Shown piece by piece: positions 38,215 through 41,270 of a stretch of DNA of 64,000 nt (positions are counted from its first letter, which is position 1; each line of letters begins with the position of its first letter). Origin of the DNA: Methanosarcinaceae archaeon. GTDB taxonomy: Archaea > Halobacteriota > Methanosarcinia > Methanosarcinales > Methanosarcinaceae. The notes beneath the pieces were generated by a model, which did not search any database, was not told where the DNA came from, and saw nothing but the letters and a program-made list of their open reading frames with translations. The stretch is from NCBI GenBank assembly GCA_016932675.1, contig JAFGCK010000053.1, positions 4,748-68,747 of the forward strand. Direction: 5' to 3'. Position numbers and translations under genes: made by a program.

Positions 38215-39321
38215 TTGCTCAACGTACTTATCATCGGAAACGGTCAGTGTGGAAACCGTATACTTGATGCTATCAACAGGGAGGCTTTTGGCAAAAAGAG
38301 CCGGTTTGCCAAGTTCTACTCCCAGCAAAAATATAAAAGCAATGTTCAGACCATTGCTATCAACACTGCGATAAACGACCTCAGGGAGATGAAATTCACA
38401 AAGGCCAGGGACAGGATCCATATACCTCACCTGCATGGTGTCGGCGCTAACAGGAACGTTGGAAAACACGTCTTTGAGGATAACAAGGCCCATATCATGA
38501 AACATGTAGAGGAGCGGGGTAACTTCGATGTTGCATTCATCCTCACTTCTGCATCCGGGGGTACTGGTTCATCGTTCACGCCTCTGCTGATCAAAGAGTT
38601 CAAACAGAGGTTCGATTTCCCTGTCTATGCCCTTGTAGTCCTGCCTTTCAGGGAAGAAGGCACCCTTTACCTGCAGAACGCCGCTTTCTGTCTCAGGGAT
38701 ATACGTGAGAGCGGTGTGGACGGCATTATCCTTGCTGATAACCAGTTCCTCAAGCAAATGGGAGGAAATGTTGAATCCGCCTACAATGGCATCAATGACA
38801 AGATCGCAAGGCGCCTTCTGTTCCTGCTGGATGCCCTGGATAGTGAAATGATGATGGTCACTGACCTTGGTGATTTCAAGACGGTGATGAATGGCGGCGC
38901 GGGGCTGGCTACTATCGGCTTCTATGAGGCCGATTCCGAAATACCTATCAAGAGCGCTATAAGAAAGGCCCTGTCCCCCACAGGCCTGCTGTTCTCAACG
39001 GACGTGTACGAGGAAGCAAGCAGGTCAATGGTTATCATCAAAGGTGACAGGAAATACCTGGGCATTGACGATATCTCATCCGAGGTGGAAAAGCTTTCGG
39101 GTTCTGTAGGTCATGTTTTCAAGGGTATCATCGTGCGAAATGACGAACTCCCCCAGGTGCTTACCGTGCTTACCCTTGAGTCAGCGTCAGAACTCGAGAA
39201 TCTGTACTCCATTGCAGTTGATGCCATAAACTATGAGAAGCAGAAAAAAGAACGTGTCATCAATGAGAAGGAAGTTGATCGTGCCTTTTCGCAGATCGAC
39301 GGCATGGATCCATCTTATTGA
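38215..39321 (+). CDS. Tubulin/FtsZ superfamily GTPase (non-canonical, CetZ-like)
   Basis: 368 aa; TTG start after AGGAGG; GNGQCGN, AINT, SGGTGSS, LPFREEG, TDLGDFKTVM. Confidence 0.85.
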   Translation: MLNVLIIGNGQCGNRILDAINREAFGKKSRFAKFYSQQKYKSNVQTIAINTAINDLREMKFTKARDRIHIPHLHGVGANRNVGKHVFEDNKAHIMKHVEERGNFDVAFILTSASGGTGSSFTPLLIKEFKQRFDFPVYALVVLPFREEGTLYLQNAAFCLRDIRESGVDGIILADNQFLKQMGGNVESAYNGINDKIARRLLFLLDALDSEMMMVTDLGDFKTVMNGGAGLATIGFYEADSEIPIKSAIRKALSPTGLLFSTDVYEEASRSMVIIKGDRKYLGIDDISSEVEKLSGSVGHVFKGIIVRNDELPQVLTVLTLESASELENLYSIAVDAINYEKQKKERVINEKEVDRAFSQIDGMDPSY

Positions 39322-39672
39322 TCCCTCTCTTTCAGATGTTTTTTCAGTACTTTGATGGGATGTCATTTTACGGATCGGATGTACAGAGGTCTATGACCAT
39401 AAGATCCTGCAGATCCAGGAACAACTCCCTTCCGGCATCGCAGTTGTGGATGCACAGAGCCATGTATGCAATATGATGATCGGGGACCCATCAAACTTTC
39501 CTTTAGTTCCTCCTTCTGTTGCAATGGTGCCTCTTGCTCCCCTATATCATATTGAATTGTTCTTTTTGGTGTCCCGGGACTCCTGTAAGAAGATATCCAA
39601 TCAGCTCAGAAAATTCCTTTTTCTGATCAGACAGCATACAATCTTATTCAATATCGATGCTGGTACGCATTC

Positions 39673-39955
39673 ATCTGTGTTTGTCGGTGCAGATCCGTGT
39701 CTTATATAAATCAATCCCAAAATTATTCAAGACACGGATTAACGCAGGATTAACACGGATTTTCCCTTTTACCGGTTTTAGCTTCCGATCTTACCGTGGA
39801 TCTGTGTTGATCGGTGTAAATCTGTGTCTTATGTAAATCAATCCCACAAATATTTCAGACACGGATTAACGCAGGATCTACGCGGATTTTGCCGTTTGCC
39901 GGTTTCAGATCCCGGTATTACCATGAATCCGTGTTAATCGGTGTAAATCTGTGTC
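39673..39955. repeat. 127-bp-period tandem array of alternating inverted arms, each with three ~10-bp ACACNGATTW repeats
   Basis: Arms AGACACGGATTAACGCAGGAT.. start at 39730 and 39857. Near-complementary arms ATC(C/T)GTGTT..TCGGTG..ATC(C/T)GTGTC start at 39673, 39800 and 39927. Confidence 0.9.
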
Positions 39956-40117
39956 CTGAAAGAGATCTGGAAGATCACCGGCTTTAATGAAAAATGACAG
40001 GCCTTTATGCTGAAATCCTGATCAGATCAGCTCTGCCAATGTTGCCACGTCTAAAAAAATAACATACATTGAAATAGTGTAAATTCAAATCTAGCCATAC
40101 TGGAGCCTGTGTTTATC

Positions 40118-40819
40118 ATGAACGGTGAATCAAACATCATTGAGATACGGAACCTTTCAAAGATCTATTCGAATGGTGTGGAGGTGCGTGCTCTGGATGG
40201 TATCGATCTGGATATCAAAAGAGGTGAGTTCCTGTCGGTCATAGGGCCTTCAGGTTCCGGAAAAAGCACCCTGCTGCATATGATAGGTATTCTTGACACG
40301 CCTACAACAGGCACGATCACAATAGATGGTCGTGTCATTACTGAAATGACGGAAAGTGACCGCTCACAGGCACGCAATGAGATACTTGGTTTTGTTTTCC
40401 AGTATCATCATCTGTTACCTGACTTTTCTGCGCTGGAAAATGTAATGATGCCTCTTCTGATCGCCGGGAAAAGCAGGTCTGATGCAAGGAAAATAGCAGA
40501 AGGTCTTCTTAATGATGTAGATCTTGGTGACAGGATGGATCACCGGCCTACCCAGTTGTCCGGAGGGCAGGCCCAGAGGGTTGCAGTTGCCAGGGCACTT
40601 GCAAACGATCCGAGCATTGTTATTGGTGACGAACCCACAGGCAACCTTGATACAAAATCAAGTGATATGATATACGAGCTGCTCAGAAAACTCAACCGTG
40701 AAAAAGGCCAGACCTTCATACTTGTGACACATGACGAAAAAATGGCCAGAAAAACAGACCGCATAATCAGGCTTGTGGATGGCAGGATATTCGAAGACAA
40801 TGATTTTGATCGGGAGTGA
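40118..40819 (+). CDS. LolD/MacB-type ABC ATPase
   Basis: GPSGSGKST, LSGGQAQR, GDEPTGNLD, VTHD. Confidence 0.92.
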   Translation: MNGESNIIEIRNLSKIYSNGVEVRALDGIDLDIKRGEFLSVIGPSGSGKSTLLHMIGILDTPTTGTITIDGRVITEMTESDRSQARNEILGFVFQYHHLLPDFSALENVMMPLLIAGKSRSDARKIAEGLLNDVDLGDRMDHRPTQLSGGQAQRVAVARALANDPSIVIGDEPTGNLDTKSSDMIYELLRKLNREKGQTFILVTHDEKMARKTDRIIRLVDGRIFEDNDFDRE

Positions 40820-40823
40820 ACCT

Positions 40824-41270
40824 ATGGAATATGCAAAAGGATCAATAGGAAGGGTCTTTACCGTACGGTTAGACCACGGGGATGACGTGCTTCACGAACT
40901 GGAGGATCTTGCACTGAAGGAAGATATAAGGTCTGCAATGTTCGTGCTACTTGGAGCTGTCAGAGAGGCAGGTCTGGTTGCAGGGCCAAAGGAGAACAAA
41001 GTTCCTCCGCAGGCTCAGTGGGTAAAAATAAGTGATGTGCACGAGATTTTAGGTGTCGGTAATATATTTTTTGAGCAGGACAGGCCAAGGATACACCTCC
41101 ACTGTGCAGCAGGCAGGGGCATAGCTCCCGTGGTAGGCTGTATGCGGGGTGAAAGCGAGATATTCATGGTCGTCGAGGTCTTCATCCTGGAACTTGCCGG
41201 GATCTTTGCCAGCAGGTCCTTCGATGAAGGCCGGGGATTTGCACCAATAGGCTTTAGTTCAACCGCTTGA
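40824..41270 (+). CDS. PPC/DUF296 domain protein
   Basis: GRVFTVRLDHGDD, LLGAV, EILGVGNI, HLHCAAG; ATG 40824 preferred. Confidence 0.85.
   Translation: MEYAKGSIGRVFTVRLDHGDDVLHELEDLALKEDIRSAMFVLLGAVREAGLVAGPKENKVPPQAQWVKISDVHEILGVGNIFFEQDRPRIHLHCAAGRGIAPVVGCMRGESEIFMVVEVFILELAGIFASRSFDEGRGFAPIGFSSTA

Follow-up and report, generated by a model that had tools for sequence, protein, structure and literature searches.

MITEs, the REP/BIME clusters of Proteobacteria with their RAYT genes (REPtrons) and the ORF-bearing IVS of 23S rRNA genes are the closest described systems to the repeat array that we report here in a Methanolobus genome. As with MITEs, the element that contains this array is non-coding, measures 159-522 bp, ends in terminal inverted repeats and makes a target-site duplication of fixed length (5 bp), and its dozens of dispersed, intergenic copies show a patchy distribution among the species of one genus. 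It departs from them in an interior composed of a variable number of 127-bp palindromic modules that belong to another repeat system, and in that the search here, in a MAG that may lack IS copies, revealed no parent IS sharing its ends. With the REP/BIME clusters it shares the alternating palindromic units, the two alternating kinds of linker, the clustering between genes and, elsewhere, the tie of the repeats to a small dedicated gene of nuclease type. However, the arms are three direct boxes phased at 10 bp, whereas a REP consists of one short palindrome, the associated gene codes for a PD-(D/E)XK protein (GxxExxY), and the repeats travel inside a MITE that duplicates its target site. Moreover, no Y1 gene of the RAYT/IS200 kind (PF01797) was detected in this genome, while control genomes gave matches, and this absence rules out an identity with REP/RAYT.

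The nearest published analogue of an insert bounded by a stem and carrying a small ORF is the 23S rRNA IVS of Coxiella burnetii (PMC4990558). Both are small selfish inserts with a long bounding stem and an optional ORF, acquired horizontally and with an ORF prone to decay (PMC4990558), but the element described here lies between protein-coding genes and not in an rRNA gene. Neither does this genome contain an S23p/four-helix-bundle gene: the search for PF05635 gave no match, which rules out the four-helix-bundle protein of the IVS type. The last system to be compared, the cassettes in which CACGGAT-type arms enclose a GxxExxY gene (PF13366/TIGR04256), has no name or description in the literature that we searched. 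The likeness comprises the box itself (ACACNGAT), its 10-bp phasing with two to three boxes per arm, the inverted arms with their CAGACAC ends facing outward, and the existence of empty and gene-bearing versions side by side (L062 and G009, see below). What sets this genome apart is that it has only empty units, embedded in a MITE at about 40 loci, and that the middle box of its R arms has drifted to an 11-nt ACRCRGGAT form. The element is thus not categorically new; what is new is a set of archaeal arms riding inside a MITE, together with tandem arrays of empty cassettes.

The window analysed is a stretch of 64,000 nucleotides from a Methanosarcinaceae archaeon (contig JAFGCK010000053.1), and the array lies there between a CetZ gene and an ABC transporter gene. 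We consider it likely that positions 39589-40033 are a non-autonomous Methanolobus MITE, whose interior consists of ORF-less cassette palindromes that were amplified passively and are now inert and decaying. The features of the locus are as follows.

38215..39321, plus strand: CetZ/tubulin-FtsZ family gene, upstream (Pfam PF00091, PF21011)
39322..39588, no strand: lineage-specific unique segment outside the repeat family, from the cetZ stop to the element, 267 bp
39589..40033, plus strand: complete MITE-like element, 445 bp, with L end, two internal 127-bp units and R end
39589..39604, plus strand: left terminal inverted repeat, GAAGATATCCAATCAG (family consensus GAGGAYRTCTAATTAG)
39605..39672, plus strand: remainder of the L end, containing a second palindromic core, TCTGATCAGAC, at 39622-39632
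39673..39702, plus strand: F arm 1, three ATCYGTGT-type boxes, the most degenerate copy
39703..39729, no strand: linker 1, 27 nt, AT-rich
39730..39760, plus strand: R arm 1, ACACRGAT-type boxes AGACACGGAT, TAACGCAGGAT and TAACACGGAT
39761..39799, no strand: spacer 1, 39 nt, weak 3-bp apical stem (family consensus CCGG..CCGG)
39800..39829, plus strand: F arm 2, ATCYGTGT-type boxes
39830..39856, no strand: linker 2, 27 nt
39857..39887, plus strand: R arm 2, ACACRGAT-type boxes
39888..39926, no strand: spacer 2, 39 nt, CCGG..CCGG apical stem
39927..39956, plus strand: F arm 3, ATCYGTGT-type boxes
39957..40033, plus strand: R end, with the right terminal inverted repeat CTGATCAGATCAGCTC at 40018-40033
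40109..40819, plus strand: ABC transporter ATPase, downstream (Pfam PF00005)

The array consists of five arms in alternating inverted orientation, and each arm holds three direct boxes (general form ACACNGAT) phased about one helical turn apart, a single arm being not self-complementary. A preliminary description, made from the letters of the window, had proposed five arms with an exact 127-bp period and three boxes of about 10 bp per arm. Measurement agrees with it in both respects: the tandem direct repeat 39673-39799/39800-39926 shows 82-83% identity and no indels, Tandem Repeats Finder returns a period of 127 with 2.2 copies and a score of 391, and the boxes are spaced by 10-11 bp. The 27-nt linkers and 39-nt spacers fall by their coordinates where that description placed them, and the perfect pairing ATCCGTGTCT..AGACACGGAT flanking linker 1 is also present. 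Each R-39 nt-F unit is preceded by a 27-nt linker, which gives the plan F-27 nt-R-39 nt-F, repeated. The extent first assigned to the feature, 39673-39955, describes the array well but falls short of the full feature, since it is the core of 39589-40033. No transposase, cas gene or nuclease adjoins the array, as had been noted, according to the family assignment of the neighbouring genes.

With at most two mismatches allowed, the 12-mer ACACGGATTAAC has 10 matches in the window against 3.07 expected, and eight of the 10 lie inside the array; over the whole genome, arms with at least two phased boxes number 143, against 21 in a reversed-sequence control. A CRISPR array is ruled out by the alternating orientation of the arms, the mutual homology of the spacers and the lack of a cas gene nearby. 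The frequent polymorphisms of the arms (columns 9/108, 17/100, 28/87 and 30/85 of alignment A1) are mostly of CpG versus TpG/CpA type, with alternatives such as ATCCGTGT/ATCTGTGT, ACGC/ACAC and CGGAT/CAGAT, a pattern that hints at a possible CpG hypermutability or methylation at the boxes.

When the array was compared by BLAST with its own assembly (1.99 Mb in 165 contigs, 94% complete), about 41 loci were found, several of them at contig ends, and the comparison of these copies showed that the flanks on both sides of the array are conserved as well. The bounds of the element were set by nhmmer with L-end and R-end profiles, extrapolating the ends and aligning them with the other copies. This search gave 42 L ends and 45 R ends, which could be paired into 29 complete elements of 159-522 bp. 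All 29 are intergenic and non-coding, their ORFs being shorter than 60 aa and without a family match. A coding reading of the L end was rejected, its ATG-led frame on the minus strand being broken in most copies, which differ from one another by 1-nt indels. The termini of the 29 copies are inverted repeats of about 16 nt, GAGGAYRTCTAATTAG at one end and CTAATTAGATATCCTC at the other, and between them the plan is L end, F arm, N times the module of 27-nt linker, R arm, 39-nt spacer and F arm, and R end. Most copies have N=1; three lack modules altogether (N=0), about six, the one in the window among them, have two, and one possibly has three. Copies diverge by 10-25%, and some are truncated.

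The 5-bp target-site duplication was examined in the 12 copies with the best-defined ends, taking as control the same flanks paired at random: matches were found at 46 of the 60 flank positions, whereas permutation yields 22.8 (p<5e-5), with three perfect pairs and eight with at least 4/5 matches. The copy of the window has no recognisable duplication in its own flanks (CTGTAA/TGCCAA). The search in the own genome advised by the preliminary description thus led to a dispersed family with conserved ends at about 41 loci, and not to the single-copy locus, empty of variation among relatives, that would have spoken for a neutral duplication. Of the options then offered, the REP/MITE-like one is the best supported: the array core is the interior of a MITE, as indicated by the number of loci, the terminal inverted repeats, the 5-bp duplication and the empty gaps of relatives. 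The cooperative protein-binding site named among these options may apply to the arms. The element is the dominant interspersed repeat of this MAG and, because copies sit at several contig ends, part of the fragmentation into 165 contigs is probably due to it. On six contigs (C12, C42, C95, C130, C144 and C161) two elements lie 1-7 kb apart or abut each other, as in the pair formed by C12:13571-13888 and a next copy running from 13894 to the contig end. Such pairs exceed the expectation for about 40 copies in 2 Mb, which points to local hopping or to a regional preference.

The window copy is surrounded by genes for nadC, a DUF11 protein, CetZ, the ABC ATPase, a PCC-domain protein, a TrmB-like regulator, enolase and LarA. 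The cetZ-ABC order is kept in five genomes of the same genus, where the gap, called cetZ-lolD in the preliminary description, measures 75-110 bp and has no boxes, versus about 730 bp here, the excess being the 445-bp element and the 267-bp unique stretch. The element is therefore absent from this gap in the five relatives; even in the nearest ones (93% CetZ identity) the intergenic DNA is not alignable, so that the empty site is judged by the gap and is not base-precise. The unique stretch, 39322-39588, is single-copy in the genome and likewise absent from the same gap in the five relatives, and its only reading frames are short, broken ones on the minus strand (31, 53 and 31 aa); an 18-nt palindrome lies at 39560-39591. 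On the other side, a motif at 40063-40095, ACATACATTGAAATAGTGTAA(A/C)T(T/C)CAAA, is conserved ahead of the ABC ATPase gene both here and in genomes of the same genus, the rest of the gap being unalignable, and it is probably a promoter or operator of the ABC operon.

Outside this genome, the ends of the element and its arms behave as separable modules. Of 36 genomes of the genus, only 7 contain the L-end motif. One of these (G024) carries mini-MITEs of 130-150 bp that keep the same ends but lack box arms, and in which the first ~50 nt of the L end recur, terminal inverted repeat included, and Methanolobus sp. Soudan_28 (G019) has a version of the element with one hairpin; it is from these two cases that we infer the modularity. 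The assignment to Methanolobus comes from G019, a genome labelled as congeneric, which is 100% identical over 901 bp to a contig of Methanolobus sp. Soudan_28. In most of the mini-MITEs (L128-L134), the strand co-directional with the usual orientation of the neighbours gives a more stable RNA fold than its complement.

Terminal inverted repeats combined with a regular 5-bp target-site duplication usually indicate that a DDE transposase is at work. No transposase was found among the ORFs around orphan ends in the own assembly, none adjoins the related ends in six other Methanolobus genomes (G024, G017, G041, G001, G042 and G045), and a BLAST of the assembly against itself revealed no other repeat of at least 350 bp. 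IS copies are often missing from MAG assemblies, and for this reason the lack of a transposase partner is weak evidence. A Tn3-derived MITE (TIME), considered because of the 5-bp duplication and the GAGG-type ends, was rejected, as PF01526 is absent from 26 genomes. Phage and plasmid collections gave no match to the element, and the literature that we searched describes neither these repeats nor any MITE in Methanolobus.

The origin of the arms themselves can be approached through their occurrence in other genomes. When one genome per species was scanned for TTYCAGACACGGATYAAC, it was found in many Methanosarcinales MAGs and in several Planctomycetota and Rhodanobacteraceae, some with multiple matches; about 280 matches are expected by chance, and hence single ones carry little weight. 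All nine bacterial loci inspected have additional phased boxes outside the search pattern. In two loci of Planctomycetota (L014, L022) and one of Candidatus Argoarchaeum ethanivorans (L069), a minus-strand gene of about 400 bp lies between an R arm and an F arm; in L022 and L069 it is a GxxExxY gene (PF13366 PDDEXK_3 and TIGR04256, E about 1e-40) and in L014 a shorter one of 88 aa (PF13366, E 7e-24, Pfam only). The frame of L069 (3922-4335) is open and has ACG at the position of the ATG start of its relatives, and the inverted repeat of this cassette reaches about 45 nt outward beyond the arms, with no mismatch seen on reading. In a Methanosarcinaceae MAG (L062), two empty units are followed by a loaded one.

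A same-genus genome, G009, has a 3.4-kb tandem array (L147, G009:C49, 9567-12982) of 16 empty units of R arm, 76 nt and F arm with a period of 183-197 bp, in the middle of which lies one intact GxxExxY gene of 126 aa. At least two further long arrays of the same genome, C82:23739-25480 and C6:44877-45402, have periods of ~170 bp and ~86 bp, and no gene was detected within them. Empty R-10 nt-F hairpins with the same boxes occur in a Rhodanobacteraceae MAG, a gammaproteobacterium (L010, 1634-1700 and 5616-5690), and thus empty forms exist in bacteria too. In the Methanosarcinales MAG SMBSF02, two loci (L011, L033) show an "inside-out" arrangement of F arm, ~110 nt and R arm, whose GTGTCT/AGACAC ends face each other; the ~110-nt interior is conserved between both loci, and the polarity is unlike that of the cassettes.

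Arms and gene tend to occur together. The phased double box ACACNGATNNACACNGAT is present in 16 of 41 Methanosarcinales genomes, with 39 occurrences in the genome analysed here (none in the reversed control) and 53 in G009, and GxxExxY genes were found in 10 of the 41. Nine of the 10 gene-bearing genomes have arms and 24 of the 31 gene-less ones have none (Fisher p=2.6e-4), one genome (G030) combining many arms with no GxxExxY gene. The genome of the window has no PF13366 (GxxExxY) match, in an assembly 94% complete that could lack the part with the gene, and none of its arm pairs encloses a gene, the arm-to-arm distances being 30-49 nt from R to F and ~30-39 nt from F to R. The resemblance of the boxes to the CACGGAT repeats around GxxExxY cassettes, pointed out in the preliminary description, is therefore real: the gene between such arms elsewhere is GxxExxY (PF13366) in L014, L022, L069, L062 and G009. 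Its wording of empty copies in an archaeon is fair, since the same arms are loaded elsewhere and neither the gene nor any enclosed gene is seen here. In the window, the unit R arm-39 nt-F arm is an empty cassette, and the 27-nt linker joins adjacent ones.

A unit has its closest relative in another element and not in the neighbouring unit of its own. In the five two-unit elements examined, all five had siblings 80-84% identical, while the closest unit elsewhere reached 82-92%, and there is no consistent pairing of first units with first units; unit 2 of the window shares 92% identity with the unit in the C38 copy, versus 82% with the unit beside it. The array is thus not a recent local duplication, since siblings resemble each other less than they resemble units in other elements. 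As judged from these identities, unit ancestry would fit an exchange between copies through the repeated arms, active insertion of cassettes being less likely. In G009, on the other hand, neighbouring units are near-identical, as would result from ordinary unequal crossing-over.

The sequence of events that we propose starts with an ORF-less cassette palindrome that would have become lodged in the master copy of a MITE. A transposase acting in trans, and recognising the ends of this MITE, could then have amplified the element passively, while the number of modules would shift by recombination between repeated arms, in part between different copies. The phased boxes probably serve, in their native setting, as binding sites of the cassette nuclease; here, without this nuclease, they would be inert and decaying.

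A first alternative is that the elements or their hairpins have been co-opted as cis-acting elements of transcripts, either as REP-like hairpins that stabilise or terminate transcripts or as a portable terminator-plus-promoter module between genes, and are under selection, which we regard as quite unlikely. The orientation of the copies is strongly biased. Of 26 genes adjoining an L end, 22 are directed away from the element (p=5e-4), and between co-directional genes the element is antisense in 13 and sense in 3 (p=0.02), with insertions located 1-50 nt past the upstream stop codon and 36-130 nt ahead of the next start codon. In addition, the R end read in the direction of the neighbouring genes shows a T5 run (TTCTTTTTC) resembling an archaeal terminator. 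This bias suggests that one orientation is selected against or that the element acts in cis on transcription (as terminator or promoter), but the copy of the window is itself among the three sense ones, in the minority orientation, and the divergence of the copies by 10-25%, truncated ones included, does not favour a selected role.

The hairpins can be weighed in the same way. The R-spacer-F unit forms a stem of ~30 bp that is interrupted by small bulges and topped by an apical CCGG/CCGG stem, with a mean of -36 kcal/mol, a stability that would suit a transcript element. For the pairing analysis, 35 units were aligned and the minimum-free-energy hairpin was imposed and its pairs counted, because RNAalifold on the 35 hairpins chose a shifted register owing to the repetition of the boxes. 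Paired cells amount to 86.6%, against 87.0% when partners are shuffled among copies and 22-45% when they are slid, and none of five covariation measures exceeds the shuffles in this alignment. The RNA folding and covariation analysis advised beforehand thus gave hairpins that fold well and pair no better than shuffles. A scan of 38500-41000 against Rfam at E<=1 returned only a sub-threshold CRISPR-DR16 match inside cetZ, which we took as chance. With neither covariation nor an Rfam match, the structured ncRNA that had been put forward as one of the options finds no support.

In 35 of 43 hairpins the RNA fold of the L-to-R strand is more stable than that of the opposite strand, an asymmetry that would also fit an ancestral function as a single strand. 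At the 23 pairs where Watson-Crick states clearly predominate, derived G.U pairs are no more frequent than derived A.C mismatches (25 vs 31, p=0.50); the asymmetry is not a G.U signature, because the effect vanishes when only derived minority states are counted. It probably reflects a handful of high-frequency polymorphisms, mostly CpG/TpG/CpA, inherited from founder copies. The more stable strand is, besides, antisense to most neighbouring genes, which also tells against the co-option of the hairpins. We conclude, as far as the comparison of sequences can tell, that the hairpins are inherited and not maintained, and that they look like decaying passengers of a MITE and not like a selected RNA.

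A second alternative, which we hold to be very unlikely, would have the element and its ends moved by a nuclease of the GxxExxY type, or by another hairpin/cruciform enzyme, with no DDE transposase and with modules that insert site-specifically. The mixed ancestry of the units of one element agrees with this mechanism, as do the co-occurrence of arms and gene genome by genome, the long arrays of empty units around the GxxExxY gene of G009, with more on C82 and C6, and the failure to find a transposase partner in the assembly or beside the ends in six other Methanolobus genomes. However, it is at odds with some 40 copies in a genome without a GxxExxY gene and with the MITE ends of G024, which have no arms at all; the near-identical neighbours in G009 are expected from unequal crossing-over, and a 5-bp duplication with terminal inverted repeats is what a DDE transposase usually leaves. 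A neutral local tandem duplication, or an array of binding sites for a host regulator specific to the cetZ-ABC gap, would account for boxes phased at 10 bp in units with an exact 127-bp period, but it is extremely improbable for a sequence repeated at about 41 loci with conserved ends, missing from the same gap in five same-genus relatives and built of sibling units whose closest matches lie in other elements.

In comparison with the non-autonomous MITE that we favour, a wider and more tentative reading, which we think unlikely, takes the phased ACACNGAT arms and GxxExxY as an undescribed system of mobile cassettes spanning Bacteria and Archaea, in which palindromic cassettes, with or without the gene, are added beside existing arms and the MITE is a second-order vehicle. 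If this were true, insertion next to arms would have built both the 16-unit array of G009 and the two-unit array of the window, the mixed ancestry of neighbouring units would record the insertion or exchange of cassettes and not slippage, and the MITE would have captured a cassette landing site.

The reach of the phased-CACGGAT/GxxExxY repeat system, undescribed in the literature searched, is extended by these data from bacteria to methanogenic archaea. Riding inside a MITE is a documented route by which its palindromes multiply without their nuclease, and the G009 locus, with empty units and an intact GxxExxY gene in one array, offers a tractable entry to the action of the nuclease on the arms.
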